Source of the DNA: Chloroflexota bacterium
GTDB taxonomy: Bacteria; Chloroflexota; UBA11872; VXOZ01
DNA: 64,000 bases
Direction: 5' to 3'
Assembly (NCBI GenBank): GCA_965221905.1
Contig: OZ244922.1
Span: 352,001-416,000, forward strand
How positions within the stretch are numbered: the stretch's first letter is position 1; every line of letters starts with the position of its first letter. Positions 8,900 through 27,393 of this stretch are shown here, one piece after another. The position numbers were made by a program, and so were the translations under genes. A model generated the notes under the pieces. That model had not been told where the DNA came from. It made no database searches and saw only the letters and a list, made by a program, of their open reading frames with translations.

Positions 8900-9231
8900 G
8901 GGGTGCGTCGTTGGTTCTAGTCTTGCGTTGGGTCTTTTACATTGGGACCAGGGAGCGCTTACGAGCAAGTAGACCGTCTAGACTTGCGCAATGATCTCTA
9001 GCGACTCCGGTTATTCAAATGAATCCTTCAAAAGGCCCAAGACAATAGCCTCCGACCAAGAATCTCGAATGCATGAATCGTAGGTTCCTCACTGCGCGCG
9101 GAAGTGTAATTGTCAGGCAATTCGTTGAAAGAATTGCGACAAAAAGAAGGTAAGCGGTGCGCTGTGCATACCTTGCATACATGTTATTCCGAACGGAGCG
9201 CAGCGCAGTGTTGCTCTTAACGCGGATTCTA

Positions 9232-10419
9232 GGAAAACTCTGAACAAGTCCCTGGCATAGTATCATAGCAAGAAAGCAGGATACGGTGAGGAGCTGGGTA
9301 ATGGAGCAACCGACGTTTGCCGACTTGGAGTACGCGCAGAAGAAGCGCAAGACGCGCCGGGAGAAGTTCTTGGAGCGGATGGACGCGCTGCTCCCGTGGG
9401 CGGAGATGGAGGCGCGCATTGCGCCGTACTATCCCAAGCCAGGGCGGGGGCGGCGGCCGTATCCCTTGTCGGTAATGCTGCGGATACACTGCGTGCAGTT
9501 GTTCTACAACCTGAGCGATCCTGGGATGGAGGACATGCTGTACGAGGTAGAACCGGTGCGGCGGTTCGTGGGGCTGCGGCTGTCAGAGGCGCTGCCGGAC
9601 GAGACGACTATTCTGCACTTTCGGCATTTGCTGGAGAAGCACCGGTTAGGAGAGGGGTTGTTGGCGGAGATCAACGCGCATTTGGCAGGTCGGGGCTTGC
9701 GGCTGCGAGCGGGGACGGTAGTGGACGCGACCATCATCGCGGCGCCGACATCGACGAAGAACCGAGAGGGGGAGCGAGACCCGGCGATGCGGCAGGTGAA
9801 GAAGGGGAACCAGTATTACTTTGGGATGAAGCTGCACATCGGCGTCGACGCACAGACGGGGCTCGTGCATAGCTTCACCACCACATCGGCCAACGTGCAC
9901 GACGTAACGCAAGCGGCGGCGTTGCTGCACGGCGCAGAGCAGCAGGTGTGGGGAGACGCCGGGTACGTGGGGGTGCAGAAGCGACCGGAGCATCAGGGGC
10001 GCGCCGTAGCGTGGCAGGTGGCGCTCAAGCCGGGGCTGCGGCGGAAACTGGCGCCTGAGAGCGCGGCGGCGCTGGCAGAGCAGCGCAAAGCATCGGTTAG
10101 GGCCAAAGTAGAGCATCCGTTCCTGTGGGTGAAGCGGCACTTCGGCTACGCCACGGTGCGCTACCGGGGTCTGTCCAAGAACAGGCAACGGCTGGCGTTG
10201 CTGCTGGGGCTGACCAATGTGATGACGGCCGCACGCCAGTTGGCAACATGACACGGGAGCAGTGCGCCCAAAACACGGCCAGGAGCGTATTGCGCTTCCA
10301 ACGGGACCGCATCAAAGCCAAAACAGCCCCTCCCACATGCCAAGACACACCTCAAACCACCCCACAATCCCGCACATACCCATAAACCGATGCATATCCC
10401 GACTTGCTCAGACCTTTCC
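9232..10419 (+). mobile_element. IS5-family insertion sequence, copy 1 (1188 bp)
   Basis: IRs GGAAAACTCTGAACAAGTC / GACTTGCTCAGACCTTTCC (16/19 match); CTAG at both ends (9229-9232, 10419-10422). Confidence 0.95.
9301..10251 (+). CDS. IS5-family DDE transposase
   Basis: TRREKFLERMD, PDETTIL, VDATII, FGMKLHIGVD, GDAGY, RAKVEHPF. Confidence 0.95.
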   Translation: MEQPTFADLEYAQKKRKTRREKFLERMDALLPWAEMEARIAPYYPKPGRGRRPYPLSVMLRIHCVQLFYNLSDPGMEDMLYEVEPVRRFVGLRLSEALPDETTILHFRHLLEKHRLGEGLLAEINAHLAGRGLRLRAGTVVDATIIAAPTSTKNREGERDPAMRQVKKGNQYYFGMKLHIGVDAQTGLVHSFTTTSANVHDVTQAAALLHGAEQQVWGDAGYVGVQKRPEHQGRAVAWQVALKPGLRRKLAPESAAALAEQRKASVRAKVEHPFLWVKRHFGYATVRYRGLSKNRQRLALLLGLTNVMTAARQLAT

Positions 10420-10639
10420 TAGAATGCCGGGCCTATTGGAGTATTAGAGGCAGGACCCCAGATTCCTCCCCGTGTTTCGCACGGGGCCGCTGCGCTCGGA
10501 ATGACATAAGCTCTACAATTGCGATAATTTCCCGGCCAAACTCAGGGTTCTTGTCTTGCTACCTGCGCCCACGCTGAGGCAACTTAGGTCACTCTGGGCA
10601 AGCCAAGCGAGGACGCAATTGCAGTAAGGAGTGTTCACT

Positions 10640-11780: not shown

Positions 11781-13526
11781 TCAAAACTCGTTGGCTCTCG
11801 GAGTTGCGCTGCCAGCTACTTGCGCGATGGCATGCAGCTTCTCGCAAATTTCGGCGTCTATCTCTTCTTCCGGCACAAAGTCGGCCAGTTCATAGAAACT
11901 TCTCTTGCGCATGAGATTGGGCAAACCGAGCTTCTTGAAGTAAGCATCGAAGAGCGGCCTGAGGAAGTCGTCACTAACCTTTGTACTAGCATCCCAAGGA
12001 GAGCCTCTACCCAGGGTTTCGAGCGCGCGACTCACCTCGTCGATGGCCTCATTCATCGCGTCCAGCCGGCGCGTGACTTCAGCTCGCGCTAGTAGAGGAA
12101 CGCCCGGTTGCGCGCTTTCCGCCGTTTCACGCGCGTAAGCCTCCAGCGTGCTTTGAGAACAAAGGTAGTTTTCGATCTCGCGTCGCTGCCACGTCAGGCA
12201 CGTGACTAGCCCTGTGTCGTGCGTGCCTGAGTCAGGTCGGTCAAATAGCGCTACACCCTTTAGATTTGGCAGCGCTTCTCTAAGCCCATGGTAGTGGCTC
12301 TGCACCGCCCCCGCACTGTTCCCGACATAGTGCACGTACGGGCGCTCAAGCGCGCTGGACGCTTCTTCGTGACCGAGACGACGAGCGAATGCCTGCAAGA
12401 TTGAGAGATCGGTAGATCCTTCTAGATAGAGTACCCAGCCAGTCTGCTCCGCTTGATTATAGTGTTCGAAGCCTATGTCCCTGAGGGACTTCAGGAGTTG
12501 GCTGCCTTGGCCGTCAATGCGATGGGGCTTGCCGACGAATGCGACCACCATATCCCTTCCGGCTGCTTCATTGAGAATCACTTCCGAGTGGCTCGCCGCA
12601 ATAATTTGGCTGCCACTCTTCTTGGCAGCCTCGGCAATTAAGCGATATATTTGGCGTTGTCGTAGAATTTCCAGATGCGCGTCCGGCTCATCCAGCAAGA
12701 GCACTGCGCCGGGGTTGGCATACATATAAGCCAAAATCAGTATGGTTTGTTGAAGACCGCGTCCGCTGGATGACAAGTCAAGCGTAACGCCACTCTCACG
12801 GTAGCTCATCGCAATCTCGCCACGCTCAGTGATGTACCGGGGCGGCTCCAATTCGACACCAAACAAGCTGCGGATTTCTGTTACCATTTCTTGCCATTTC
12901 TCGACATGTTCCTCGTAGATGCCGTAGCAAAGATTGCGTAGGACCTCCGCTGTGCGTCCCTCGCCTACACGTACGTTCACCGCCCCGGGGTCGAGTCGAG
13001 TTTCAGTGGCGGCAAGACCGGACATTGGCGGCAAGAACGCAACCTGCACACTGTCAGCTGCTTCCGGTACCGCCATTCTCACCGCCGTGTTTTCTTTAGT
13101 TTTTCGCAATGGGCGACAGTAGAATGACTCCTCATTGGCGTAGTCGAACTCTAACCCGCAGGCCCACGGTTGATCGTCAGTGACACCTTCCACGATGACA
13201 TCGATCCGCACGTTCTGTGTCTGCTGCTTACCATCCTCTTTGCGCACGTCCCGCGAATGAAGTCCGTGCCACAAGAGACGTGCACTTGGAACCGGGATGG
13301 CAAAGAGGTCTCGACGATTGACAGTGACGCCGGGACGCTTTTCTGGCGCGCCCTTGCCCTGACGTTTCTCATTCCACCGTTTCAATCCGACGTCCCAGAG
13401 CGCGAGCGCCTGCATGGCCGAGGTTTTCCCCGAATTGTTCGGGCCGATAAAGGCTACGGGGTTACCTAGCTCAATCTCGACCTCGCCGAAACGCTTGAAA
13501 TTGCGGATAGTGAGTTTAGTCAGCAT
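11781..13526 (-). CDS. ABC/AAA_21-type ATPase with TOPRIM-like C-terminal domain (OLD-like)
   Basis: IRNFKRF, Walker A GPNNSGKT, signature-like SSGRG, Walker B LLLDEPDAHL, ASHS; C-terminal YLEGSTD, DRPD, REIENYL. Confidence 0.8.
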   Translation of the reverse strand: MLTKLTIRNFKRFGEVEIELGNPVAFIGPNNSGKTSAMQALALWDVGLKRWNEKRQGKGAPEKRPGVTVNRRDLFAIPVPSARLLWHGLHSRDVRKEDGKQQTQNVRIDVIVEGVTDDQPWACGLEFDYANEESFYCRPLRKTKENTAVRMAVPEAADSVQVAFLPPMSGLAATETRLDPGAVNVRVGEGRTAEVLRNLCYGIYEEHVEKWQEMVTEIRSLFGVELEPPRYITERGEIAMSYRESGVTLDLSSSGRGLQQTILILAYMYANPGAVLLLDEPDAHLEILRQRQIYRLIAEAAKKSGSQIIAASHSEVILNEAAGRDMVVAFVGKPHRIDGQGSQLLKSLRDIGFEHYNQAEQTGWVLYLEGSTDLSILQAFARRLGHEEASSALERPYVHYVGNSAGAVQSHYHGLREALPNLKGVALFDRPDSGTHDTGLVTCLTWQRREIENYLCSQSTLEAYARETAESAQPGVPLLARAEVTRRLDAMNEAIDEVSRALETLGRGSPWDASTKVSDDFLRPLFDAYFKKLGLPNLMRKRSFYELADFVPEEEIDAEICEKLHAIAQVAGSATPRANEF

Positions 13527-13642
13527 TGAAAGCCACAATGATCATTCGCTCAAGCTTGCAAACTGCAGTTCGCCGGATACTGGTTTTGGCAGCATTGTAC
13601 CATGCGACTCATGGCATATTGGCGTCGAACCCCAAATCAACC

Positions 13643-13954
13643 TCAAGTCTCATAGAGGGGCGTCCTTGTGGCCTCGACTGCTTCCAAGAAGTACGGGTTC
13701 TTGATGGCCGACTCGACTACCGGATCCACCCGCCTGTCGAATAGCTGCTGCAGGGCTTCCAACAAACCAAAGTACGTGTTGGCATAGACGCCTGGAGGCA
13801 GCGGTTCGAACTCCACCAGAAAGTCGAGGTCGCTAGCCTCCGTCAAGCCCCGGCCGGTCGCGGCTGAGCCGAACAGGGCAAGCCGCCGGACACGGTAGCG
13901 GCGGCATAGCCGCTCCAAATCGGCAGCCCATTCGCTAATGACCGGGTGCAGCAC
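13643..13954 (-). CDS. Minimal nucleotidyltransferase (MNT-type antitoxin)
   Basis: LFGSAA...SDLDFLVEF, RRVDPV, NPYF. Confidence 0.9.
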   Translation of the reverse strand: MLHPVISEWAADLERLCRRYRVRRLALFGSAATGRGLTEASDLDFLVEFEPLPPGVYANTYFGLLEALQQLFDRRVDPVVESAIKNPYFLEAVEATRTPLYET

Positions 13955-14036
13955 GACACCCTCCCGCTATCATAGTCAGCAGAATCAATTCAATTGCTCC
14001 CTCCGGCCGTCGTCTCGGTCTGGGGCGCGGCGGGTG

Positions 14037-14609
14037 TCACGTGACATCTTCGAAATATCCCGCGATGTGCGTGTCGTATTCGGCAGTATGTTGAAAGGCT
14101 TTGGCTGCCAGCAGGGTGCGCAGCGCAGTGTCAGCTTGTCCCGCGGCGAGTGCGTTGAGCACGGGGGCGTAGTCACTGGGGTCTACCACCACGAGCACTG
14201 AATTAGCGTTCTTGGCGGCGGCGCGGATCAGCGTGGGGCCGCCGATGTCGATGTTCTCGACGATTTCCCCATGATCGGCGCCACTTTGCAGAGTCTCCAC
14301 AAAGGGATAGAGGTTTGAGGCTACCACGTCCACAGGCACAATAGCGTGGTCGCGCAGGGTTTGCACGTGTTCCGGCACGTCCTGCCGTGCCAAAATACCG
14401 GCGTGCACCGCCGGATGCAGGGTCTTCACACGTCCATCGAGGATTTCCGGAAAGCCGGTTACATCGCTAATGCCGGTTACGGGAATGCCCGCTGCTTCTA
14501 TCGCGGTCTGGGTGCCGCCGGTAGAGACAATTTCGAATCCCAGCTTGGCTAGACCATCCGCAAACTCGACGATGCCGGTCTTGTCGAAAACGCTCAGAAT
14601 CGCCCGCAT
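14037..14609 (-). CDS. purH: PurH N-terminal IMP cyclohydrolase (MGS-like) domain only
   Basis: RAILSVFDKTG, STGGT, GRVKTLHP, NLYPF, ENIDIGGPTLIRAAAKN; stops at about 190 aa with no AICAR transformylase domain. Confidence 0.85.
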   Translation of the reverse strand: MRAILSVFDKTGIVEFADGLAKLGFEIVSTGGTQTAIEAAGIPVTGISDVTGFPEILDGRVKTLHPAVHAGILARQDVPEHVQTLRDHAIVPVDVVASNLYPFVETLQSGADHGEIVENIDIGGPTLIRAAAKNANSVLVVVDPSDYAPVLNALAAGQADTALRTLLAAKAFQHTAEYDTHIAGYFEDVT

Positions 14610-15088
14610 GTGCTCTAAAGCCCCTATTCTCATTTGAAAAGATAGATTCTCGTTTTTCCCGGGAATGATGGTCGTTGGCAAAGCGGCGAGCCCCACAGTA
14701 TTACCCCTCGCACCAGTGATTATACACGTGTTCGGGCAGCACCTCCGTCATACGCTTCCCATGTACACGCCAACAGCTATAGCGTAATTTGGATTTCATT
14801 GAGTTTTAGCATGTGGAATTAGCAAGGCGCACACAGGCGGCAGGGACTCGACGGTCAACTGCGCAAGCAGTAAGATAGGCAAGAATGGACACCAGAGCCG
14901 ACCGGTGGCGGAGGGCGTCCGAGCTTAGGCTAACCCAGTTGCAACGGCCCCTAAGGTATTGTCTTCGAAAACAACCCGCCCATTCCTATGAATTCGAGTA
15001 ACGATGATGACCTGCGCCCATACGTCTCTTTCCCCACGCAAATAACAGAGTTCCGAGCGCACAGTTCAACCCAAATGAGGATTTCACC

Positions 15089-16054
15089 ATGACGGAGAAG
15101 CGGCTGAAGTTCATCGTTCCCGGGGACTTCCCACCCCAAATTCAAGGATCGCCACACCTTGACCGGCTTCAGCCGTATGGCGACGTTGACCTGTACCTCG
15201 ACCGGCCGCGGGACATGGCAGAGCAACTGGAACGCGTGCAGGGCGCCCACGTCATCTTGAATACGCGGGGGGCTGTCAAGTGGTTTGCGCCTGCGCTCCA
15301 GGCCCTGCCGGACCTGCGCCTCATCGCTACGTGCTCCATTGGCGTCGACTCGTATGACATTGAGGCGGCGCGGGCATGCGGCGTTGCCGTAAGCAATCAA
15401 CCGGGTAGAACTGCGGCGGTGGTCGCCGAGCACATCATCGGCCTCATGTTCGCCGCTGCCAAGCGCGCTGCGTTTCAGACCGGCGAGCTCAAGGCCGGAC
15501 GCTGGACACTCAAGCAGAACGTGACGCTCAGCGGCAAGACGCTCGGCGTCGTCGGCACAGGCAACGTGGGACGCGAGGTGGCACGGGTGGCCAATTTGCT
15601 CGGCATGCGGTGTCTGGCGTGGACGTATAATCCGTCGCCGGAGCGGGCGCGCGAGCTTGGGGTAGAGTTCGTTGAACTTGACGAATTGCTTGGAGAATCC
15701 GACGTGGTGAGCCTGCACGTGCGGCTCAGCGATGAAAGCCGACACCTCATCGGTGCACGCGAATTCGGATTGATGAAGCCGGGAGCCCTTTTCATCAACG
15801 CCGGTCGCGGCGAGCTGGTGGATACCGCTGCCCTCGTTGACGCCCTGCAATCCGAACACCTGGCCGGCGCCGCTCTCGACGTGTTCGATCAGGAGCCGCT
15901 TCCGCCCGATCACCCAATTCTCGGGTGCGATCAGGTGGTCCTCACGCCGCACCTTGCCGATCAGACCCCGGAAGGCATCGAATTGCTGAACGAAGGCGCG
16001 GTCTCGAACGTCATTGCCTTCTTGGAAGGGCGTCCGCAGAACATCGTCACCTAG
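15089..16054 (+). CDS. D-isomer-specific 2-hydroxyacid dehydrogenase
   Basis: GVVGTGNVG, INAGRG, AALDVF..EP, LTPH. Confidence 0.9.
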   Translation: MTEKRLKFIVPGDFPPQIQGSPHLDRLQPYGDVDLYLDRPRDMAEQLERVQGAHVILNTRGAVKWFAPALQALPDLRLIATCSIGVDSYDIEAARACGVAVSNQPGRTAAVVAEHIIGLMFAAAKRAAFQTGELKAGRWTLKQNVTLSGKTLGVVGTGNVGREVARVANLLGMRCLAWTYNPSPERARELGVEFVELDELLGESDVVSLHVRLSDESRHLIGAREFGLMKPGALFINAGRGELVDTAALVDALQSEHLAGAALDVFDQEPLPPDHPILGCDQVVLTPHLADQTPEGIELLNEGAVSNVIAFLEGRPQNIVT

Positions 16055-16160
16055 AGGAAGATTTCGAATTAACTATGCGCCTGTCCTACGGGATCAAGTT
16101 TCCCTTGGCAGACTTGACGGAAGGAACACGGGAACAGAGCGTCCTGCCCGCCTTGTGCAC

Positions 16161-16266
16161 ATGTCATTCCGAACGGAGCGCAGCGCAGAGAGGAATCTGG
16201 AGTCCCTGACGTTCATGTTCCAGTAGGTCCAGGATTCTAGATTCCTCGCTGCGCTCGGAATGACAT
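16161..16266. repeat. Intact GTCATTCCGA...TCGGAATGAC palindromic (MITE/REP-like) element
   Basis: ATGTCATTCCGAACGGAGCG...GAGGAATCT / AGATTCCTCGCTGCGCTCGGAATGACAT; half copy at 63450-63476. Confidence 0.8.
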
Positions 16267-16366
16267 AGATAGTCTACACATTGTAGTAACAAGCGGCATC
16301 TTTCACGCATAACTCAACAATTACGCTTCCCGGGTGCGCGGGGATCTACCACCTAAGGCCCTATCC

Positions 16367-17170
16367 ATGGATAAACGAATCGAAACGAATCGCATCAACT
16401 GGAACGAAAAAACCTCTGTACACGCCGATTCCGCCTTCTATGACGTAGCGGGCTTCAAAGCGGGCGGCATAACCCTCAAAGCGCTCGAGCGGGAAGAGGT
16501 CGGCCCTGTAGCCGGGAAGAAGCTGCTCCATCTGCAGTGCCACTTTGGGCTGGATACCATGTCGTGGGCGCGGCTTGGAGCGCAGGCAACGGGTATAGAC
16601 TTTTCTGATGACGCGATAGAACTCGCGCGCGCGTTGAATGCTGAAGTCGGAACGGGCGCGCGCTTCATCCGATCCGATGTGTACGATCTGACAAACGTCC
16701 TCGATGAAGAATTCGACATTGTGTTCACGTCGTATGGCGTCTTGGTTTGGTTGCCGGACCTCGACCGCTGGGCCGACGTGATTTTCCGTTGCCTCAAACC
16801 GGGCGGCACGTTCTACATTGTGGAATTCCACCCACACCTGGCAACGCTTGAACCCTCCGCGAGTGGTGACGCGCGCCCATTCTATAGCTATTTTTGCGAA
16901 GAGTTGTTCTTTACGGGCGATGAGCCGTCCTATGCCGGTGACGAGCATATCGCGAGTCCCAATTACGAGTGGCAGCACAGCCTTGGCGAGATTATCACTG
17001 CCTTAGTTGATGCCGGACTCAGGATCGAGTTCCTCCATGAGTTTCCCTTCTGCCACTTTCGAGCGCTGCCCAACATGGTGCAGGGCAAAGATGGTTGGTG
17101 GCGCTTCCCGGAGAAAAACAGCTCCATCCCGCAGATGTTCTCTATTCGGGCAACTAAGCCGCATTCCTGA
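16367..17170 (+). CDS. Class I SAM-dependent methyltransferase
   Basis: LLHLQCHFGLDT, FDIVFTSYGVLVWLPDL, LKPGG. Confidence 0.9.
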   Translation: MDKRIETNRINWNEKTSVHADSAFYDVAGFKAGGITLKALEREEVGPVAGKKLLHLQCHFGLDTMSWARLGAQATGIDFSDDAIELARALNAEVGTGARFIRSDVYDLTNVLDEEFDIVFTSYGVLVWLPDLDRWADVIFRCLKPGGTFYIVEFHPHLATLEPSASGDARPFYSYFCEELFFTGDEPSYAGDEHIASPNYEWQHSLGEIITALVDAGLRIEFLHEFPFCHFRALPNMVQGKDGWWRFPEKNSSIPQMFSIRATKPHS

Positions 17171-17640
17171 CCAGACCCCCTTTAGTAAGACTCCAACTTG
17201 GCGGGATGATTACGCCAGTGTCTCGAAGAGGCTTACCGTCTGCTGGTGGGGGTTCTACTGTTGGGGGCGTGTTTCCAAGAGTGCCGCAACGGCTTGCCAG
17301 GCTCGTGGCAAGAATCCAAAGCTAAACCTCGGAAACTGTTCTGCGGCGAAGAGTGAGTAGGTTTCGGCACGGCATCTTTTGCACGGCCGCGCCGCCTGCC
17401 CTGCAGTTGAATGGCAGGATTAGCGCCGGGATGACGAGGGGGAGTGGGAAGGCGAGTCCTGAACTTAGCCTGAAACGACAGGTCTCATACTTGGATACCC
17501 AGCTTATGTAGGAGGGATAGCGTCCTCAAGGGAAGCGTACAGCATCCGGTTAGGCCGGCCGTGTATGCGCCAACGGTGGAGTACCGATTCCGTTTCGAGA
17601 GAGAGGCGTGAGGCTAGATCGTTGATCGTTGGGCAATTGA

Positions 17641-18813
17641 CTACCGATTGCGGCGGCGGCGCAAAAATGACGGGACGTCTAGATCCTGAACTTGCACGTC
17701 TTCTACTTCCGGCTCGCTGGTGGGCCGGTCGTCAGATGGAGGGGGACGCCTGCCAGCACGCTGCGGCTGTTCATCGGGGAGGCCGGTCGCAATCAGCGTC
17801 ACTTGCACCTCTTCCAGATTTGCTGGATCAATAGACGCACCGACGATGATGTTGGCCTCACTGTCTACTGTGTTGCTGACCACTTCCGCAGCAGCGCTGA
17901 TCTCCTGAATAGTCATGTCGGGACCGCCGCGGAAATTTAGTAGCACGCCGCGAGCGCCTCGAACGGGCTTATCGGAGAGCGGGTCTTTCATCGCCTCTTC
18001 CACTGCGAGCAGCATGCGATTCTCGCCGGACCCAATCCCAATCCCCATCATGGCTGCGCCCGCATCCTGCATGACTGAACGCACGTCGGCAAAGTCAACG
18101 TTGATGATCCCTCTCGTTGTAACGAGTTCAGTGATTGACTTCACTCCGTTAACGAGCATTTCATCAGCCAGGGCAAAAGCCTCGGTAATTGGCGCTGAAG
18201 GCGGCACCGCAGCAAGGAGACGATCGTTATGAATAACAATCAACGTATCCACATGCTGTTGGAGCGCTTGCAAACCGGCAGCAGCGTGACGTTGGCGCGG
18301 CCTGCCCTCGAACATGAACGGCAGTGTGACAACGCAGACCGTGAGGGCGCCATGCTGCTTAGCGAGTTCGGCAACCACCGGTGCCGCACCGGTACCAGTG
18401 CCGCCACCCAAGCCCGACGTTACAAAGACCATGTTTGCGCCCCTGACGAGCTGTTCGATTTCCTGCAGGCTCTCCTCTGCCGCTCGCTTGCCGAGGTCAG
18501 GATCTCCACCGGTCCCGCGGAGCCGTGTAATGCGATCGCCAATGGCGAGTTTCTCGTCTGCGCGCGAGATTTGGAGGGCTTGAGCATCCGTATTGATAAC
18601 TGAATACGAAGCCCCGGCGACACCGGCTTCGATCATGCGGTTCACCGCGTTGCTACCGCATCCACCCACGCCGATAATGCGAATCTGAATGATGCCCTGC
18701 GCGTCGCGCGATTGCGGGCTCGTGCCTACCATATCTGGAACCACCGGGCGGGGGCGTGTGCTGTCTTTCACAGTCTCTAACCGTTCGGGATCAAAGCCGG
18801 GCCGCTTCGACAC
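17641..18813 (-). CDS. ftsZ: Cell division GTPase FtsZ with N-terminal extension
   Basis: GVGGCGSNAVNRM, NTDAQAL, GLGGGTGTG tubulin signature, INVDFADVR T7 loop, C-terminal DLDVPSFLRR. Confidence 0.95.
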   Translation of the reverse strand: MSKRPGFDPERLETVKDSTRPRPVVPDMVGTSPQSRDAQGIIQIRIIGVGGCGSNAVNRMIEAGVAGASYSVINTDAQALQISRADEKLAIGDRITRLRGTGGDPDLGKRAAEESLQEIEQLVRGANMVFVTSGLGGGTGTGAAPVVAELAKQHGALTVCVVTLPFMFEGRPRQRHAAAGLQALQQHVDTLIVIHNDRLLAAVPPSAPITEAFALADEMLVNGVKSITELVTTRGIINVDFADVRSVMQDAGAAMMGIGIGSGENRMLLAVEEAMKDPLSDKPVRGARGVLLNFRGGPDMTIQEISAAAEVVSNTVDSEANIIVGASIDPANLEEVQVTLIATGLPDEQPQRAGRRPPPSDDRPTSEPEVEDVQVQDLDVPSFLRRRRNR

Positions 18814-19567
18814 GGTCTAACACCTCTCTGGCTAGTAGTTGATACGCATTCGCGGCTTTTTTGGCGCCAGAATAGGCATTTACCGGGACGCCCGCTGACG
18901 CCGCTTCCAAAATCTTGCTGTTCGTCCCAATTTCCGTGGTAAAGACGCGATCACCCCAATGTTCATGAAGGTATTGCCAAACCGCTTTTTCTTCACGCAG
19001 ACGGCGGTCGTACTTGCTCAGCAGCACACCTAAAATCTCGACCTTCGGGTTGAGTGCTGCGGCCTCGGCTATGGTTTCTTGCAACATGTACAAGCCTTGC
19101 AAAGAGAAGAAACGCGCTTCGGTTGGAACTATCACACAGTCCGCCGCCACCAGCGCGTTTACCGTGAGCAAACCGAGTGAAGGGGGTGTGTCGATCAGGA
19201 TGAAGTCATAGTCATCTCGTACGCGTTCCAAGCGCTCGCGCAAGCGGAGTTCCCGACCGATAAGCGCAGCTAATTGAAACTCTACGTTGGCAAGCTCCAA
19301 CGACGCGGGCACAACGTCAATCACCATGCCAACGTCGTCCTCAATGCGGTATATAGGCATTTCCACCTTACGGTCCCGCAGTGCGCCTGCAATCGAAGTT
19401 TCCAACTCTCGCTCCAGACCAAGGTGGGCGGTCAAATTGGCCTGTGCATCCATGTCTACCGCCAAAATGCGCTTACCCATCTGTGAAAGAGCAGCACTCA
19501 AATTCGCAGTGGTGGTTGTTTTGCCAACACCACCCTTTTGGTTGGCGCAAGCAATAATGAGAGCCAT
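18791..19567 (-). CDS. ParA/Soj family ATPase
   Basis: Deviant Walker A NQKGGVGKTTT, DMDAQAN, IDTPPSLG, EAxxxGxP; 3' end overlaps ftsZ start by 23 nt. Confidence 0.9.
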   Translation of the reverse strand: MALIIACANQKGGVGKTTTTANLSAALSQMGKRILAVDMDAQANLTAHLGLERELETSIAGALRDRKVEMPIYRIEDDVGMVIDVVPASLELANVEFQLAALIGRELRLRERLERVRDDYDFILIDTPPSLGLLTVNALVAADCVIVPTEARFFSLQGLYMLQETIAEAAALNPKVEILGVLLSKYDRRLREEKAVWQYLHEHWGDRVFTTEIGTNSKILEAASAGVPVNAYSGAKKAANAYQLLAREVLDRVEAARL

Positions 19568-19974
19568 AATACTTGTTTTGCTGCTACCCACGCCCAAGGT
19601 TTGCGCTCCATGCCCGTAGTGTATCATAACAACTATACACCCACAAATAACCGATTGACTAGCGAGTCTGGGTGTATTGTGCATGCGGTTTCTGCCCCAA
19701 GTTTGTGCACCGGGAATGGTATGCTACTAGGCGATCTACATCTCCACGGCGGGTTGAAGAGCACAGAGAGATGCAAATTCCGTAGGATGGTCTGTCTCTG
19801 CGGTTCCGCTTTCGTTCGGCCCCCATTTCTTGCTCTTAGCAAGTGGTGCGAAGCATACGGTGGATGGGTTGCACCATTCGCCAGACTTGACGGGTGTGGG
19901 GGCATAGCACCAGATAGCACCTGCGCCACGCTAGAGCGCAAGTATGCAGTCCATTGAGGCCTGTTTCGTTGCCC

Positions 19975-20604
19975 ATGACCGGTAAACGCGCACTCGATCT
20001 TCGACTCTACGTCGTGCTTGACCCGGCATTAGCCCGGGGGCGATCGGTGGTAGAGATTGCCCGCCATGCTATCGCCGGTGGGGCTACAGTGCTACAGTTG
20101 CGCGACAAACACTCCACCGACCGTGCAGTCTTGGCCGCGGCAACGGAAATTGCGCACCACTGCCGCACTGCACGCATACCCTTCATTATGAACGACCGCG
20201 TGGACATTGCTTGGGCGTCCGGCGCGGATGGCGTCCACCTCGGTCACGATGATCTGCCGCCTGCTCTAGCCCGCAAGCTGCTGGGAGAACGGGCGATCAT
20301 CGGCATGTCAGCGGGAAGTGAAACAGAATTGAAAGCAGCGTTGCCTGGGCAACCGGACTATCTTGGCGTGGGCCCTATGTATGCTACGTGCACGAAGAGC
20401 GATGCCGGTGCACCGGTAGGACCCGCCATGATGCGCACGCTGCGGCAGGCCGCGCCCGGAATCCCCCTGGTGGGTATCGGCGGCATCACGCGGGAGAACG
20501 CAGCGGCAGTGATGGCGGCAGGCGCTGACGGTATTGCCGTGGTCTCGGCGGTGGTGGCAGCGCGCGACGTGGAAGCCGCCACGCGCGCCCTGTGCGGTCT
20601 ATAG
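19975..20604 (+). CDS. thiE: Thiamine-phosphate synthase
   Basis: QLRDK, NDRVDIA, GVHLGHDD, TCTKSDA, GIGGI. Confidence 0.92.
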   Translation: MTGKRALDLRLYVVLDPALARGRSVVEIARHAIAGGATVLQLRDKHSTDRAVLAAATEIAHHCRTARIPFIMNDRVDIAWASGADGVHLGHDDLPPALARKLLGERAIIGMSAGSETELKAALPGQPDYLGVGPMYATCTKSDAGAPVGPAMMRTLRQAAPGIPLVGIGGITRENAAAVMAAGADGIAVVSAVVAARDVEAATRALCGL

Positions 20605-20802
20605 CGTGCGAACCACGTGCTTAGTCTCGCTTACTATCGCTGCCTCTCTGCGGATCGCTATGCCGACACCGACCTGTTATTTCCCAAGCTATCCGTGCTT
20701 GTTTCTAACGCTAGGCGTCGTTTATGCTCGATAGAGAAGGGTATTGTTGCAGTTCCCCGGCTCCTTATCCCTTCGCTTGCTTGGCATAGGGAAGACAACT
20801 CG

Positions 20803-22776
20803 ATGACCTCCATGAACGAGAACAATCAGCGTACACGCTATGACGTAATTGTCGTGGGCGCCGGTCATGCCGGCTGTGAGGCGGCGCTGGCGGCGGCGCG
20901 TATGGGCTGCAGGATTCTCGTCGTGACCGGCGATCGCGATCGCATCGCGTTCATGCCCTGCAATCCCTCGATTGGCGGTCCGGCCAAAGGACATCTGGTG
21001 CGGGAGATCGATGCCCTTGGCGGCGAAATGGGTAAGAACACCGACCGCACCCTGATCCAGATTCGCCTGCTCAACAGCAGCAAGGGACCCGCCGTACAGG
21101 CGCTGCGCGCCCAGTGCGACAAACACCTTTACGCCCAGTCCATGCGCCAAGTGCTGGAGAACCAGCAAAACCTGACGATCCACGACGGCTTGGTAGAAGA
21201 TCTGCTCACGGGCGATGCGCCGGAGGGGCACCGGATTACCGGTGTGGAAACCAAGGACGGTCGCGCCTTCTACGCACAGACAGTGGTGCTCACCACCGGC
21301 ACCTTCTTGCAGGGCATGCTGATCACGGGAGAGAAGCGCATTGGCGGCGGCCGCGAGGGCGAAGCACCGGCGCAGGGCCTTTCGCATGCATTGCGACGCT
21401 TGGGCTTTCGTCTCCGCCGCCTGAAGACCGGCACACCGCCCCGCGTTCTGGCCGAAAGTATCGACTTTTCGCTCACAACGCCGCAACCCGGCTCACCGCA
21501 GCCGCTGCGATTCTCGTTCACGCCTCTGCGAGATGAGGAACTCCGGCGTGATGTGCCGGACCCGGTCTACCCCTTTCAGACTAATACGCCCTGGCGGCGG
21601 CAGATGGTCTGCTATTTGGTGCACACGAATCCGGCAACCCACGCCATCATTCGTGCAAACCTCCACCGGGCGCCGATGTTCAATGGCGCTATTAGCGGTG
21701 TGGGGCCCCGCTATTGTCCTTCTCTAGAGGACAAAATCGTGCGGTTTGCGCATAAAGAATCCCACCAACTATTCCTCGAGCCCGAGGGATTCACGACCCA
21801 TGAAGTGTACGTGCAGGGGGCGAACACCAGCTTGCCTGAGGACGTGCAAGCAGCCATGCTGCGCACCGTACCCGCTCTGCGCCACGCGGAGATTGTGCGC
21901 CACGGCTACGCCGTGGAATACGACCACGTGGTTACGGACCAAACGAGCGTCACATTGGAAGCCAAGTCGGTTTCCGGACTCTTCTTTGCGGGGCAGATAA
22001 ACGGCACGTCCGGCTATGAAGAAGCAGCGGCGCAGGGGCTCATTGCCGGCATAAACGCCGCGCGGGGCGTGCAAGGCAAGCCGCCCATCGTGCTTGGGCG
22101 CGACCAAGCGTACATAGGCGTGATGCTGGACGACCTCGTGAGCCAGGAGCACCAGGAACCTTACCGCCTCTTCACTTCTCGGGCGGAGTACCGGCTGCTG
22201 CTGCGGCACGACAATGCCGACCTGCGCCTTACGTCCCTGGGCTACGAGATCGGCCTGATCAGCCCCGAGCGCCATGCCGGCGTGTTGGCAAAACGGGAGC
22301 AGATTGCGCATACCCTAGACCGTTTGCGCCGGCACCGGATTACTCCTTCACCCAGCACGAATAGCGCATTGACCGAAGCCGGCGTACAACCACTCAGCAG
22401 CCAAACCAAGGCGCTGAGCATACTGCAACGTCCGCGCGCGCGATACGCCGTTGTCGCCGCACTCATGGGCGATCAGACTGACGGCCTCGATCCCGAAGTA
22501 GTAACGCAAATCGAGCTTGAAGCACGCTACGCGGGTTACGTGGAACGGCAACAGGCCCAGGTACGCAAGATGGCGCGCATGGAAGGCTTAGCACTACCGC
22601 AGGACATGGACTATGAACAACTGCTTTCCCTGCGGGTGGAAGCACGCCAAAAGCTGGGACAGTTCCAGCCGCGTACGATTGGGCAGGCCGCGCGTATCGC
22701 AGGTGTCACTCCAGCGGACATTGCTGTACTGATGGTGCACGCCCGCCGGCATACGGCAAGAGCAGCGGTGCGGTGA
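20803..22776 (+). CDS. mnmG: tRNA uridine-5-carboxymethylaminomethyl(34) synthesis enzyme MnmG (GidA)
   Basis: GAGHAGCEAA, CNPSIGGPAKG, GPRYCPSLEDK, GQINGTSGYEEAAAQG, TSRAEYRL. Confidence 0.97.
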   Translation: MTSMNENNQRTRYDVIVVGAGHAGCEAALAAARMGCRILVVTGDRDRIAFMPCNPSIGGPAKGHLVREIDALGGEMGKNTDRTLIQIRLLNSSKGPAVQALRAQCDKHLYAQSMRQVLENQQNLTIHDGLVEDLLTGDAPEGHRITGVETKDGRAFYAQTVVLTTGTFLQGMLITGEKRIGGGREGEAPAQGLSHALRRLGFRLRRLKTGTPPRVLAESIDFSLTTPQPGSPQPLRFSFTPLRDEELRRDVPDPVYPFQTNTPWRRQMVCYLVHTNPATHAIIRANLHRAPMFNGAISGVGPRYCPSLEDKIVRFAHKESHQLFLEPEGFTTHEVYVQGANTSLPEDVQAAMLRTVPALRHAEIVRHGYAVEYDHVVTDQTSVTLEAKSVSGLFFAGQINGTSGYEEAAAQGLIAGINAARGVQGKPPIVLGRDQAYIGVMLDDLVSQEHQEPYRLFTSRAEYRLLLRHDNADLRLTSLGYEIGLISPERHAGVLAKREQIAHTLDRLRRHRITPSPSTNSALTEAGVQPLSSQTKALSILQRPRARYAVVAALMGDQTDGLDPEVVTQIELEARYAGYVERQQAQVRKMARMEGLALPQDMDYEQLLSLRVEARQKLGQFQPRTIGQAARIAGVTPADIAVLMVHARRHTARAAVR

Positions 22777-22993
22777 GCAGCGATCAGACCAAGCGCGAGC
22801 GTGCCGACTGCGTGGGGCTCCACCACCATGCGCGCGGTTTCAAGCACATGTCCTCTTGGCCAAGACCGGTCAAGAGCGTTTCGATAGTTGGTTAAGCCGA
22901 ACAACTGCCCGTTCGAGAATTAGAGTGGCGTGCGGCGTGTGCGCATATAATGTAGTCATCGACCATCAATTTTCATCTTGAGGCGCTTCAAAC

Positions 22994-24397
22994 GTGAGTG
23001 TTCTCGAACTCTCATTCGCAGACATACCACCCGGCGAGATACAGGATGACATGCCAAGCGCAACGGCTCACCCTGGTGAGAATACCCGTGCCCTTGCGCT
23101 GCTTCTTGGCGCGGCCTTGGCGTTGATGCTTGTTTGGACGGCAGTTGTGCCGTTTGACAAAGGCCCCGACGAGGCGGAACACTACCGGGTCGCACACTTC
23201 ATCTATGCGAACGGTCGCCTGCCCGTGTTCGCTCCCGACGGCGACATGTACGGATATGTTGTGAATGCCGAAGAAGCGTTTATATCCTATGCCGCGCTTC
23301 CCGGTTTCAACTACGTACTCTCCGCGCTCGCTATGCGACTCGTTCTGACCGATGACCCGTACGCATTGCTCTACGCGGCACGATTCGTCTCGACTCTCGC
23401 CGTATTGGCGACAATCTACCTAGCGTTTCGCACAGCATGCCTGCTCTTTCCTATGCGTCCCGACATAGCACGCGGCACGGCGCTAATACTTGTGCTCATT
23501 CCTCAGGTGACCCTCACCGGCGCCTACGTGAACCAAGATGCGTACACCATGGCTGTGTGCAGTTGGACCATCTATTTCTTGCTTGCCGGTTGGAAAGAGG
23601 GTTGGACCGCAGGGCGCGCCGCATGGCTGGGTGTAGCTTTGGGACTGGTGCTGCTGGGCAGGCTGAATGGCTACGTGGTCATTCCTTTTGCGTTGCTTGT
23701 TGCCGCACTCTCGCTGCGTGGCGGCGTCGGTATTGTCCTGTTACGGCTGTTCATCACGGGCTCGGTGGCTACGCTCGTTTCCGGTTGGTGGTTCGTGCGC
23801 AGTTACTTGCAGACCGGCGATCCAATTGGCATCCAAGCGGTTATGGAAGCGTGGCGCGCGCTCGCGCCGCTGCGTCGTGCTCCACGAGAGATCGGTGTGT
23901 CTTTCTTAGACATTCTGCGGGGTGATACTCCCTACCTCGTCTTCCGCACCTTTTGGGGCGCATTTGGGCAGTTGGAAGTCTACTTTCTCTGGCCCTACTA
24001 TGTGCTTCTCGGTCTGCTTACCCTCGGTGCTGGGGCCGGTCTAGCGTGGGGTCTAGTGCAGTGGTTTGCCGGTCCGAGACCTTTGCATGCGTTGTTTGAT
24101 CGCGAATATGCGCGGAATCAGGCGTTTCTAGCGGCAGCCGTCGCACTCCTCGGCATGCTTGTGCTTGGCATGGTAGCGCTCGTGTTCTGGCAAGCATGGG
24201 CCACGTCGTTTGCCACCCAGGGACGCTATCTCTTCCCTGCGGTAGTGCCGATCGTGCTCTTCATTACGCTTGGCATCACCGCGCTACCGTTGGGTAGAGT
24301 GCTCCAGCCGCTGGCCCTTGGGTGCGCCATTGCTTTCTTGTTCGTGCTAAATCTAATCGGTCTCTTTGCGTATACGGTACCGACCTACTATCTCTAA
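22994..24397 (+). CDS. GT-C (ArnT/PMT/DUF2142-like) membrane glycosyltransferase
   Basis: PDEAEH after the first TM, multiple TM helices, VNQD, QGRYLFP. Confidence 0.75.
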   Translation: MSVLELSFADIPPGEIQDDMPSATAHPGENTRALALLLGAALALMLVWTAVVPFDKGPDEAEHYRVAHFIYANGRLPVFAPDGDMYGYVVNAEEAFISYAALPGFNYVLSALAMRLVLTDDPYALLYAARFVSTLAVLATIYLAFRTACLLFPMRPDIARGTALILVLIPQVTLTGAYVNQDAYTMAVCSWTIYFLLAGWKEGWTAGRAAWLGVALGLVLLGRLNGYVVIPFALLVAALSLRGGVGIVLLRLFITGSVATLVSGWWFVRSYLQTGDPIGIQAVMEAWRALAPLRRAPREIGVSFLDILRGDTPYLVFRTFWGAFGQLEVYFLWPYYVLLGLLTLGAGAGLAWGLVQWFAGPRPLHALFDREYARNQAFLAAAVALLGMLVLGMVALVFWQAWATSFATQGRYLFPAVVPIVLFITLGITALPLGRVLQPLALGCAIAFLFVLNLIGLFAYTVPTYYL

Positions 24398-25687
24398 ATG
24401 CTCTACCGCGTTTTCATTGTCATCGGAATGCTGGTGTCCGCAGTGTTGTGGGCGGGGTTTGGTTGGCAGGTGCTGGGCAGGCACCATGTCATTCCGTACG
24501 ACCCGCCGCTGCGGTGCTTGCACGTAGCGCTTCCCGTTGCACCCGGCCATACGCTTTCGCAGACAATCCTCGGGCGCTCGCACGGTCTCAGGGGGGTCGC
24601 ATTAGCATTTCGCACAACGTCGGCGGCTACGGTAGCGGTAGCAATTCATGAAGAAGCTCCAAACGGCAAGCCTACTCCGTTGGCAGCAGCTTCTCTGGCA
24701 CTGCCGGCCAACCATCCTTTCTACACAGTTCACGTCGTCTTTCCCACTCAACTTGAATCGGAAGGCAAGACGTATGCCGTGCATGTGCGAGGACTGGATG
24801 AACAGGGCGAGTCAGGCGGTGGCCTGGATACCGCGCCGTTGGCGTGGTCGTGCTGGAGCGATGCGTTCGCGTACGGCGAATTGCTGGTGGATGGCGAGCT
24901 TGCCCACGGCGATCTGTTCCTCCAGCCGCTCTATCAGCGTGGCGCGGCCGGCGCGGTGCAGGCAATCGTGGCACGGTTTCAAGGGATTCGCGTCGGCGTG
25001 TTCCCCGCTTGGCTATGGTGGGCCTGCCTTATCGTCGCCCTTCTCGGCATGCCAACGCTGGTAGTTTGGGCCGCGGGTGGGCGCGTGGGGTCCCTGCCCA
25101 ATCTCATTGCACTGCTCATCGTGCTCCCTCTCGTGGGCCTCGCCGTTTATTGGGGCGATCCTCGGCTGCACCGGCCGGTGGTACAGGCCGGCGAGCCGGC
25201 AAGTGTTGTCGAGGCATCAACGCCAACGACGGTTAACCTACTTCACGAGTTGCGAAAGCAGGCGGTGGGGGAGATTGCGCCGCAGGAAACGTGGGACCGG
25301 CATCTCACGTTCGCACTGGAGCCGGTGACACGTGACAATGGAGAACGCCGACTAGTGCTGCGCACCAGTGTCAATACCACAGCGACGTGGCGCAAAGTTA
25401 CTATCCCGCCGGATGCAGTGCTCTCACTTGAGGCCGTTGTGGATCAGGGACAATGGACGACAGACGACGGGCCCATTGTCGTGCGCGTCACTGCGACCGC
25501 TGACGGCGTAATGCTCTTGGACGTGCGGGAGACCCTCATCGACGAGCAGGGAGAGTCGCATCGGCTAATGCAGACACTCGACCTCTCAGCCCACACAGGC
25601 CAAACTCTCACGCTGACACTCGCCACGCAGGGCGAGACGCGGAACAGCGCTAACATGGTGATCTGGTCCGGACTACTCCTGCAATAA
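24398..25687 (+). CDS. Hypothetical membrane protein with extracytoplasmic domains
   Basis: Starts immediately after the GT-C stop; three hydrophobic segments. Confidence 0.65.
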   Translation: MLYRVFIVIGMLVSAVLWAGFGWQVLGRHHVIPYDPPLRCLHVALPVAPGHTLSQTILGRSHGLRGVALAFRTTSAATVAVAIHEEAPNGKPTPLAAASLALPANHPFYTVHVVFPTQLESEGKTYAVHVRGLDEQGESGGGLDTAPLAWSCWSDAFAYGELLVDGELAHGDLFLQPLYQRGAAGAVQAIVARFQGIRVGVFPAWLWWACLIVALLGMPTLVVWAAGGRVGSLPNLIALLIVLPLVGLAVYWGDPRLHRPVVQAGEPASVVEASTPTTVNLLHELRKQAVGEIAPQETWDRHLTFALEPVTRDNGERRLVLRTSVNTTATWRKVTIPPDAVLSLEAVVDQGQWTTDDGPIVVRVTATADGVMLLDVRETLIDEQGESHRLMQTLDLSAHTGQTLTLTLATQGETRNSANMVIWSGLLLQ

Positions 25688-25737: not shown

Positions 25738-27006
25738 TTAGCTTGCGTGCCGGACTGCCAGCCAGAGGCGGCGGAGGGTCATGCGCTGGCCGTAGATGAG
25801 GATGCCGGCGCGGAAGACGCGGGCGGAAAGCCAAAGCAGCGCTAGGCCGCTCGCGACGGTCACGCCCAGACAGAGCGCGATTTCCCAGAGCGCCACATCG
25901 GTCACGCCAAGCCGGATCATCATGGTGGCGGGAGCGGTAAAGGGGATGAAGGTAAGTATCCGCGCGAATGCGCCATTTGGCGCAAGTGAGATTAGCGAGG
26001 CAAGAATGAGCGGCGCGAGCGCAGGCAGAAGAACAATCGAGGAGAGTGAAGACGCCTCACGCGCCGAGACCGTGGCGGCGCTGATGCCCGCCATCACTAC
26101 CGCAAAGACAAAGTAACCCGCGAGGAAGAAGACGACGATTGCCGCCGCCAATACCGGTGAAAGCGCGAGATCGCCGATATCTGGAAAGGCATTCACAATG
26201 CGCGGGACGAACAATGCCAAGGAGACCAGCCAGACGCCCACTTGCAGCAGGCCGGTAGCGCCCAGTCCAAGCACCTTGCCGGTCATCAAAGCCAGTGGCG
26301 AAACCGACGTGATGAGCACCTCTACGACGCGGTTCTCCTTCTCTTCGGAGACGCTCTGCAGCAAGGTTCCGCTGACCATGTAGATCACCATGATCATGAT
26401 CCACGCCGATAAGAACGGCACCGTAAAGAACTCGAGGATTAGCCCCTCTTCTTCCGCCGCCACGTCGCCAGCGCGCGTAACCTCGAAGCGCGTTAGGTTC
26501 AGGGGGTCTTGCAGGCGTGCAATCCGGTCTGTGGATAGATCGGCAGACGTCAGGGCTTGCAGTAGGATCGCGCGCATGCGGTCTTCGCTGTCGTCTCCGG
26601 CGATGATACTGCTCAAGCCGCTATCCGTGTGGAGCCACTCTACGCGGCCCGTCTGGAGAAAGTCCGCGGGAATGATGAAGAGGTCGTCTACACTACCCTC
26701 TTGCAGCGCGGTGATACCGGCTTGGCGATTGGAAAGAACCTGGAAGTCAGCAGAATTCTGCGGCGCAAATGTCAGGTTGGGGGAGTCGTTGACCACCGCG
26801 ATGGCTCTCCCGCCGTCCGTGCTAGCGGTACTTGCGCTGTCCCCGCTGAAGAGACCGCGCACCAGCGGCATGGCGAGCGCCAATACGAGCACGATTACCA
26901 CCGGCGTAAACGTGATAATGAGGTATTGCTTACGCCGAATATTGCGCCGGAATTCTTCCGACAGGACGATGCTTATTTCGGACCAGAGTCTTTGCACGTC
27001 ATTCAT
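25738..27006 (-). CDS. ABC-2 type (NatB-like) permease
   Basis: SVSEEKENRVVEVLITS, GKVLG, FRAGILIYGQR. Confidence 0.9.
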   Translation of the reverse strand: MNDVQRLWSEISIVLSEEFRRNIRRKQYLIITFTPVVIVLVLALAMPLVRGLFSGDSASTASTDGGRAIAVVNDSPNLTFAPQNSADFQVLSNRQAGITALQEGSVDDLFIIPADFLQTGRVEWLHTDSGLSSIIAGDDSEDRMRAILLQALTSADLSTDRIARLQDPLNLTRFEVTRAGDVAAEEEGLILEFFTVPFLSAWIMIMVIYMVSGTLLQSVSEEKENRVVEVLITSVSPLALMTGKVLGLGATGLLQVGVWLVSLALFVPRIVNAFPDIGDLALSPVLAAAIVVFFLAGYFVFAVVMAGISAATVSAREASSLSSIVLLPALAPLILASLISLAPNGAFARILTFIPFTAPATMMIRLGVTDVALWEIALCLGVTVASGLALLWLSARVFRAGILIYGQRMTLRRLWLAVRHAS

Positions 27007-27039
27007 CCCTCTGCCAACGGTGCGCTACGGCGGCACATC

Positions 27040-27306
27040 CTAGCGGGATAGCAGTTCGAGCGCTGCGATGAGCGCCACACCGGCTGCGATCATGCCCCCC
27101 ATGCGCAGCGTCAGGTCGTGCCGCAGCCGCAACTCCAGCTCCCGCAGGCGCGCGTCCACTTCATCCAGGCGCGCGTCCAGATGGTCTTTGGTCGCCAACG
27201 CGCCATAGCCTTCGCTCCCTACGTCCAGCAGGGCCTGGGCTTGACGCTCCGTGAATCCCGCCTCCACGAGCGTCGTAAACGCCCGGTGAGTGTCGAATAC
27301 GGCCAT
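27040..27306 (-). CDS. DUF1640/CCDC90-like small coiled-coil membrane-anchored protein
   Basis: FDTHRAFTTLVEAGFTERQAQAL, LATKDHL, C-terminal TM. Confidence 0.75.
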   Translation of the reverse strand: MAVFDTHRAFTTLVEAGFTERQAQALLDVGSEGYGALATKDHLDARLDEVDARLRELELRLRHDLTLRMGGMIAAGVALIAALELLSR

Positions 27307-27393
27307 GATTCTTGTTCCTCGCTTTACGCGGTATAATCCCGTCAATACGAATTGTACGTCATACCGACTCCCGCGTGTTCCTTGTACGGTCGC

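Follow-up and report, generated by a model that had tools for sequence, protein, structure and literature searches.

A 64-kb stretch of a Chloroflexota genome (contig OZ244922.1, positions 352,001 to 416,000; "the window" below means this whole stretch of 64,000 nucleotides) contains two overlapping genes, one for a Soj-type ParA ATPase and, directly behind it, one for the division protein FtsZ, and this FtsZ begins with a short conserved N-terminal peptide that will be called the tag. The parA-ftsZ pair and its tag are conserved in a large clade of Chloroflexota. The reading that we favor, and regard as evenly poised between right and wrong, is that ftsZ occupies the parB slot behind a Soj-type parA, translationally coupled to it, and that the tag contacts nucleoid-associated ParA and probably stimulates its ATPase. 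The two genes and their junction, in window positions, are as follows.

18791..19567, minus strand: parA, a Soj-type ATPase of the ParA/MinD family, 258 amino acids (aa), assigned by AAA_31 (181 bits) and CbiA matches, with the start placed by conservation of Met-1
17641..18813, minus strand: ftsZ, 390 aa with a GTG start, assigned by the TIGR00065 equivalog together with Tubulin and FtsZ_C
18791..18813, minus strand: overlap of the parA stop and the ftsZ start, 23 nt by coordinates, an arrangement of translational coupling

The initial annotation of this DNA had described a Soj-type ATPase overlapping ftsZ by 23 nt with no parB, ftsA or ftsQ nearby, and this is borne out: a Pfam scan of the 66 open reading frames (ORFs) that cover the whole window found none of the ParB, FtsA, FtsQ or Mur families, and there are no division and cell wall (dcw) genes within the 64 kb. 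It had also proposed that conservation of the pairing be checked across relatives, and both contig matches and overlap-fitting protein ends indicate that the pairing is kept, in a close clade as well as in a clade whose FtsZ is only about 50% identical. In a first linkage test, FtsZ and ParA protein clusters were compared for the exact size of their longest contig and for their source label. Four of 23 FtsZ clusters of the close clade matched a ParA cluster in both respects (contigs of 6217, 36404, 47305 and 169758 nt), as did 8 of 45 of the distant clade (2314, 2742, 3304, 4088, 5707, 10580, 14617 and 15107 nt), the latter after a search seeded with the distant ParA P0180. Altogether 12 tag-bearing FtsZ clusters were matched to ParA, six of them on contigs of 2.3-6.2 kb, compared with none of the 50 FtsZ clusters that lack the tag motif and with a mean of 0.81 matches (maximum 5) in controls in which the lengths were shifted by -200 to +200 (400 shifts). 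On the 2314-nt contig, two complete genes fill about 1.9 kb, and therefore must be adjacent.

The second test asked whether the C-terminus of a ParA and the N-terminus of an FtsZ can be read from one DNA string. All five close pairs, the window's own counted, fit the 23-nt overlap and all eight distant pairs fit an overlap of 8 nt, while none of the mixed close/distant pairs fit an overlap of at least 11 nt. Among the distant ParA C-termini, 138 of 181 end in Arg-Val (70), Arg-Gly (35) or Arg-Ala (33), and these are the ends that an 8-nt overlap forces when the distant FtsZ starts with Met or Val followed by Ser (20 of 42), by Ala or Val (10) or by Pro (10). The matching proportions are consistent with the 8-nt overlap, although this is not an independent test because the lists of ParA ends and FtsZ starts are different samples. 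In the window the ancestral ParA stop TAA reads GAA, so that ParA gains five codons (EAARL), and the 23-nt overlap is therefore a derived form of the 8-nt one.

The distribution of the tag was followed in FtsZ relatives from a search of 5.8 billion proteins, taking the window's sequence and its best 120 matches (121 rows). The motif G-F-x-P-x-R is present in 63 of the 121, window included, and its bearers form two groups, a close clade (P0001-P0023, 65-99% identity) and distant relatives at about 50%. A tree was built from the FtsZ core of all 121 rows with the extension cut off, and in it one branch, with a support of 98, sets apart all 50 truly motif-less rows (Ardenticatenia, Caldilineae and Bacilli among them). 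On the other side stand the 63 motif rows and eight rows with short N-termini, seven of which begin at an internal Met and one of which (P0023) has a short unrelated start. By this tree the tag is one trait of long standing, belonging to one large clade of FtsZ. As to the identity of that clade, the ParA relatives for which a source gives a name (12 listed clusters) are Chloroflexi or Chloroflexota with the exception of one metagenome-assembled genome named Reyranella, the FtsZ P0096 of the tag clade is named Chloroflexota, and the ESM Atlas cluster nearest to the whole FtsZ is mostly Chloroflexota.

Outside the clade, gene order was taken from 80 genome loci, the listed matches of an FtsZ contig scan (42-55% identity, many phyla, none from the window's lineage). 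None of the 80 has a ParA within 7 kb of ftsZ, as judged by tblastn with the window's ParA, and in none is the tag motif found in frame upstream of ftsZ, with three of these loci having no readable start. For the 74 loci at which the gene upstream of ftsZ could be read, it is ftsA in 35, ftsQ in 33 and another gene or one of no family in six; in no case is it parA. Five of these loci belong to other Chloroflexota (Thermomicrobium, Chlorohelix, Anaerolineaceae, Aggregatilineaceae and GWB2_54_36). For Dehalococcoidales and SAR202, the part of PMC10608941 available to us describes mraZ, mraW, ftsA and ftsZ as adjacent.

The tag consists of a basic head, then G-F-x-P-x-R-L, then R-P-x-P-V-V-P, and its parts in the window are these.

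18733..18813, minus strand: FtsZ N-terminal extension, residues 1-27 of about 40, predicted disordered; predicted local distance difference test (pLDDT) score below 50 at residues 1-4, 14-19 and 25-40
18778..18798, minus strand: motif 1, GFDPERL, FtsZ residues 6-12; F7, P9 and R11 invariant and G6 kept in at least 90% of 58 sequences
18730..18756, minus strand: motif 2, RPRPVVPDM, FtsZ residues 20-28; R20 and V25 kept in at least 90% of 58 sequences
18821..18828, minus strand: Shine-Dalgarno-like GAGAGGTG, inside parA and 7 nt before the ftsZ GTG, by sequence match only

The 58 sequences are tag-bearing FtsZs whose cores are 49-99% identical to that of the window. In their alignment the tag residues are as well kept as the catalytic ones, in contrast to the unconstrained C-terminal linker; the peptide appears to be under strong selection. 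In the aligned N-termini the two motifs are spaced by 13 residues in 19 sequences and by 10 in 33, the longer spacing being that of the window's clade. The initial annotation gave FtsZ about 40 extra N-terminal residues, which is too many: 47 residues precede the first GTPase glycine box, compared with 17-27 in most motif-less FtsZs, and the extension exceeds the N-terminus of ordinary FtsZ by about 20-30 residues. It also called the peptide basic, and this holds for the first part of it, since the Phe of motif 1 sits 5-9 residues from the N-terminus in 60 of 62 sequences and the head before it always carries one to three Lys or Arg, with no Asp or Glu in 60 of 62. It does not hold for the extension as a whole, whose mean net charge is only +0.5. 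A start of FtsZ at the internal Met (MVGTS), which that annotation had named as a way for its reading to fail, is rejected, because the invariant F7, P9 and R11 all lie upstream of it; the Shine-Dalgarno-like sequence before the GTG agrees. Three close-clade database entries (P0003, P0020 and P0023) have shorter N-termini, and in P0003 and P0020 the first residue is the aligned internal Met.

Searches with the tag itself returned little. The 40-residue peptide gave no phmmer match at E ≤ 0.001 among 1.84 billion representatives, but the query was too short to inform, because even close relatives were not returned. There was no match at E ≤ 10 among PDB sequences, and residues 1-34 reached a best score of 0.79 in the ESM Atlas, which is noise level.

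What makes the tag a candidate ParA ligand is its likeness to the peptides by which partners activate ATPases of this family. Partners of ParA and MinD are described, in the portions available to us of PMC7993993 and bioRxiv 10.1101/2022.06.09.495121, as contacting and activating the ATPase by way of an N-terminus that is short, disordered and positively charged and has one or two essential Lys or Arg. Going by analogy, the FtsZ tag has the descriptive hallmarks of such a putative activating peptide: it combines an extreme N-terminal position and predicted disorder with a basic head and an invariant Arg, and its codons come straight after the ATPase gene. The gene that follows parA likewise begins with a short basic head at seven parA loci in a plasmid collection. 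With FtsZ in the partner slot and endowed with a partner-like N-terminus, contact with ParA through the tag is taken as the best explanation. The proposed sequence of events is that FtsZ would have acquired the disordered N-terminal tag; that the tag would contact the ATP-bound, nucleoid-associated ParA dimer, with probable stimulation of its ATPase; that FtsZ polymers themselves would be the cargo or target of ParA; and that Z-ring placement would in this way be tied to the nucleoid with no adaptor of the ParB, PomX/Y or MinC type. The effect on the Z ring might be positive (mid-nucleoid positioning) or negative (nucleoid occlusion). DNA binding by ParA, like the binding of ParA by the tag and the activation of its ATPase, is something that we infer. 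A bolder version, which we entertain with reserve and would sooner bet against than for, makes FtsZ both the cargo and the activating partner of nucleoid-bound ParA in a two-protein, self-organizing placement of the ring, whose origin would lie in a replacement of parB by ftsZ behind soj, with the initial codons of parB (tag, GTG start and 8-nt overlap) retained or captured.

The closest parallel is ParABS (Soj-Spo0J), which shares with the window's pair a Soj-type ATPase with a deviant Walker A motif, a partner gene directly downstream with a stop/start overlap, and a partner N-terminus that is short, basic at its head, predicted to be disordered in FtsZ and marked by a conserved Arg. Even the junction geometry of the clade's 8-nt form is that of soj/spo0J in B. 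thuringiensis, where the overlap is 8 nt, the start is GTG and Spo0J also begins Met-Ala-Lys. The two systems differ in that the downstream gene here encodes FtsZ, which has no ParB or helix-turn-helix (HTH) fold, in that no convincing parS site was found in the window, and in that the tag reads G-F-x-P-x-R-L where the three ParBs compared are of the type L-G-R-G-L. In PomXYZ of Myxococcus xanthus, as set out in the part of PMC7993993 at hand, the Z ring is positioned by a nucleoid-bound ParA-like ATPase whose activator is an N-terminal peptide, short, conserved and positively charged. A ParA-family ATPase and a candidate short N-terminal activating peptide are thus common to both, but the Pom peptides are carried by the scaffolds PomX and PomY, which recruit FtsZ, whereas in the window FtsZ itself carries the candidate peptide and the pair has no scaffold gene beside it. 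Heterocyst-forming cyanobacteria offer an FtsZ with a clade-specific, conserved and functional N-terminal extension (PMC6175996, available in part). It is a different one, in that G-F-x-P-x-R is absent from all 80 listed loci, those of cyanobacteria included, and at the cyanobacterial loci L001, L041, L044, L048, L064 and L069 there is no ParA within 7 kb of ftsZ.

The ATPase itself looks like a regular member of its family. Two features of the gene, in addition to those above, are the following.

19517..19537, minus strand: deviant Walker A motif KGGVGKT of ParA, from the translation; N9-T17 invariant in the relatives' alignment
19632..19661, minus strand: weak promoter-like site upstream of parA, TAGTCA-18-TATAGT, from a consensus scan (3 sites compared with 1.3 expected)

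The longest parA ORF extends to 19684, and the start at 19567 is preferred since its Met-1 is kept in at least 90% of 65 aligned relatives. A Pfam scan matched AAA_31 at 181 bits and also CbiA, and no NCBIfam equivalog reached its cutoff for this ParA. The nearest solved structure is Soj of Thermus thermophilus (1wcv), which aligns end to end (residues 5-256, 160 bits). In the plasmid collection the 25 best-listed matches are 42-46% identical and comprise the annotated soj of Bacillus, other annotated ParA genes and unannotated chromosome-sized records.

These properties give substance to a plainer account, in which ParA is an ordinary segregation Soj with its ParB encoded elsewhere, ftsZ landed behind it and was kept there for useful co-expression, and the tag binds a membrane anchor, a regulator or FtsZ itself. 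We judge this co-regulation rather unlikely, though a serious contender. In its favor are the end-to-end alignment with Thermus Soj, the 42-46% identity to best-listed plasmid-collection matches that include Bacillus soj, and the presence at 1 kb of mnmG, which usually neighbors soj around replication origins, as can be compared with the B. thuringiensis locus L081, where the order is mnmG-rsmG-noc-soj-spo0J. The second conserved block of the tag, unlike known activating peptides, also speaks for it, as does the existence in cyanobacteria of clade-specific FtsZ N-terminal peptides with other roles (from the available part of PMC6175996). Against it stand three observations: co-regulation would not call for a link as tight as the stop/start overlap kept at about 50% FtsZ identity; the tag resembles cognate partners in having its basic head at the extreme N-terminus, right behind the ATPase gene; and neither a parB nor a convincing parS occurs in the 64 kb. 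For the last of these, the search of the window returned four matches, each with three mismatches to a 16-nt consensus, and 9 of 100 shuffles equaled this, which is chance level.

Several considerations weigh more generally against a contact between the tag and ParA, and should be set beside the favored reading. The contact is a proposal from sequence and gene order; a complex prediction of the ParA dimer with ATP, Mg and FtsZ residues 1-40, with the chains given as alignments, returned 0.00 in two runs made with no controls and is evidence neither way. The net charge of the extension ranges from -2 to +3, its invariant Arg is flanked by acidic residues, and classical activating peptides are more strongly basic. 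For the second block, R-P-x-P-V-V-P-x-I, known activating peptides offer no counterpart, and it might serve another partner, in place of ParA or besides it. ParA has the look of a usual chromosomal Soj, 1 kb from mnmG, and its true partner could be a ParB encoded at another locus. Adjacency in the relatives is deduced from contig sizes and protein termini, not from their DNA. Finally, because the peptide and the linkage appear to map to one single clade, their co-occurrence would count as one evolutionary event, not as a repeated association.

ParA-family ATPases that act directly on FtsZ do exist, MipZ being the example, and ParA might accordingly be an inhibitor of the MipZ or MinCD kind that engages the FtsZ globular domain and keeps FtsZ from polymerizing close to the nucleoid or the poles, with the tag not the contact site. 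Such precedent, together with a partial match to the Pfam MipZ model (PF09140, 48 bits, profile positions 2-136 of 262), is what this alternative has in its favor, and we think it quite improbable. The AAA_31 match is far higher at 181 bits, and the MinD models score far below their cutoffs (TIGR01968, 60.5 compared with 212.9; TIGR01969, 102.9 compared with 201.75). ParA ends in RVEAARL, in which no recognizable amphipathic membrane helix can be read, and an inhibitor of this kind would leave the clade-wide co-occurrence of tag and linkage unexplained. The comparison with the two model systems runs along the same lines. MipZ of Caulobacter is a ParA-family ATPase that acts directly on FtsZ, known there and proposed here, but it is anchored by ParB and inhibits FtsZ with no FtsZ N-terminal tag involved, and it represents a distinct family, as the partial match indicates. 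MinCDE shares the ATPase superfamily and activation by the N-terminal part of a partner (MinE); MinD, however, is a membrane-binding protein that reaches FtsZ only through MinC, and its models fall far short for the window's ParA.

A further question is whether this FtsZ is the division FtsZ at all. It scores 386.1 bits on the TIGR00065 equivalog (cutoff 295.2) and contains the Pfam domains Tubulin (PF00091) and FtsZ_C (PF12327). The GTPase signature GGGTGTG at residues 136-142 and the T7 loop NVDFAD at residues 238-243 are invariant in the alignments, and the core of the AlphaFold2 model has a pLDDT above 90. The C-terminal end is also of the expected kind.

17644..17685, minus strand: FtsZ C-terminal conserved peptide DLDVPSFLRRRRNR, following a variable linker; P381, F383 and R385 invariant in the alignments

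This peptide is the usual docking site for membrane anchors, and the earlier statement that FtsZ keeps its GTPase signature, T7 loop and C-terminal anchor peptide is confirmed by these matches. The window's FtsZ clade has its own wording at two places, RLRGTGGDP where other FtsZs have RGLGAGG(D/N)P at residues ~98-106, beside the nucleotide pocket, and IHND for IPND at residues ~194-197.

The gene might still be a second paralog, that is, a ParA-linked extra copy serving for example as a segregation or compartment-positioning device, with the main division ftsZ elsewhere beside ftsA. The long branch of the window's clade in the core tree (1.11) and the replacement of RGLGAGGDP by RLRGTGGDP beside the nucleotide pocket would fit such a copy, and so would the ftsA-adjacent ftsZ of Dehalococcoidales and SAR202 (PMC10608941, in the part noted above) and the several genes annotated FtsZ in Dehalococcoides (PMC5102406, likewise available in part). 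Yet the score above the equivalog cutoff, the retention of GTPase signature, T7 loop and C-terminal docking peptide, and an identity to canonical FtsZ of other phyla (48-54%) that is as expected among those themselves all argue for an ordinary FtsZ. Among the 120 listed matches no second FtsZ cluster came from the same chromosome-sized contig, which is a weak test. Overall, we regard a second paralog as unlikely.

Around the pair, thiE and mnmG lie divergently on the plus strand and a methyltransferase gene is convergent. The mnmG gene (gidA, 20617-22776, plus strand) lies 1 kb from parA, with neither rsmG nor parB beside it, and its position next to parA may be a remnant of an origin-proximal arrangement. 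The ~470 nt between the ftsZ stop and the convergent methyltransferase gene (17171-17640) are non-coding, have no Rfam match and yielded no terminator-like site on the ftsZ strand; in the wider interval 14000-24000 there was no Rfam match either, and so no riboswitch or known RNA around the pair. Repeats around parA-ftsZ are limited to short two-copy matches. A plasmid or phage origin of the DNA is ruled out, as the window has leuS, the L25 ribosomal protein gene, mnmG and purK.

On a larger scale, an insertion sequence (IS) of ~1.19 kb is present in two copies, at about 9229-10422 (plus strand) and 37489-38682 (minus strand), which differ by one base over their shared length. Each encodes a 321-aa transposase of the DDE_Tnp_1/DUF772 type and has the ends CTAGGAAA...TTTCCTAG. 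The copies are inverted to each other and bracket ~27 kb that include parA-ftsZ, and recent IS activity could have inverted or reshuffled this segment. The second copy adjoins a gene (38668-41904, minus strand) for a 1078-aa protein made almost entirely of leucine-rich repeats.

Elsewhere, purH is apparently truncated, its ORF (14037-14696, minus strand) covering the MGS domain and the first 58 positions of AICARFT/IMPCHase. In the same region (11781-14696, minus strand) lie a small nucleotidyltransferase (13643-13954) and a 585-aa AAA_15/AAA_21 ATPase (11781-13538), and the two genes beside purH look like a toxin-antitoxin or defense-like insertion. Two adjacent large ORFs of 467 and 429 aa (22994-25687, plus strand) belong to no Pfam family, the first being visibly a multi-pass membrane protein, and two ABC-2 permeases with an ABC ATPase (25738-29560) adjoin them. 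Three tandem paralogs of malate/L-lactate dehydrogenase 2 (Ldh_2), ~354 aa each, occupy 45832-49535 (minus strand) with small unassigned ORFs between them, and a 279-aa ORF at 4070-4909 (minus strand) matches the aminoglycoside 3-N-acetyltransferase family (Antibiotic_NAT, 146 bits).

Literature searched as full text, a scope outside which papers in subscription journals fall, yielded no account of a parA-ftsZ operon or of the FtsZ tag. How bacteria that have neither Min nor Noc place their division ring is an open question, and, to our knowledge, every known ParA-family solution (MinCDE, MipZ-ParB and PomXYZ) has at least one adaptor between the ATPase and FtsZ. If the tag acts as it looks, the conserved and coupled parA-ftsZ pair would be the simplest such system, one in which the nucleoid and the Z ring are coupled directly, and a natural example of the "luggage-tag" principle. 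The pair offers a handle on cell division in Chloroflexota lineages that are seen as metagenome-assembled records.

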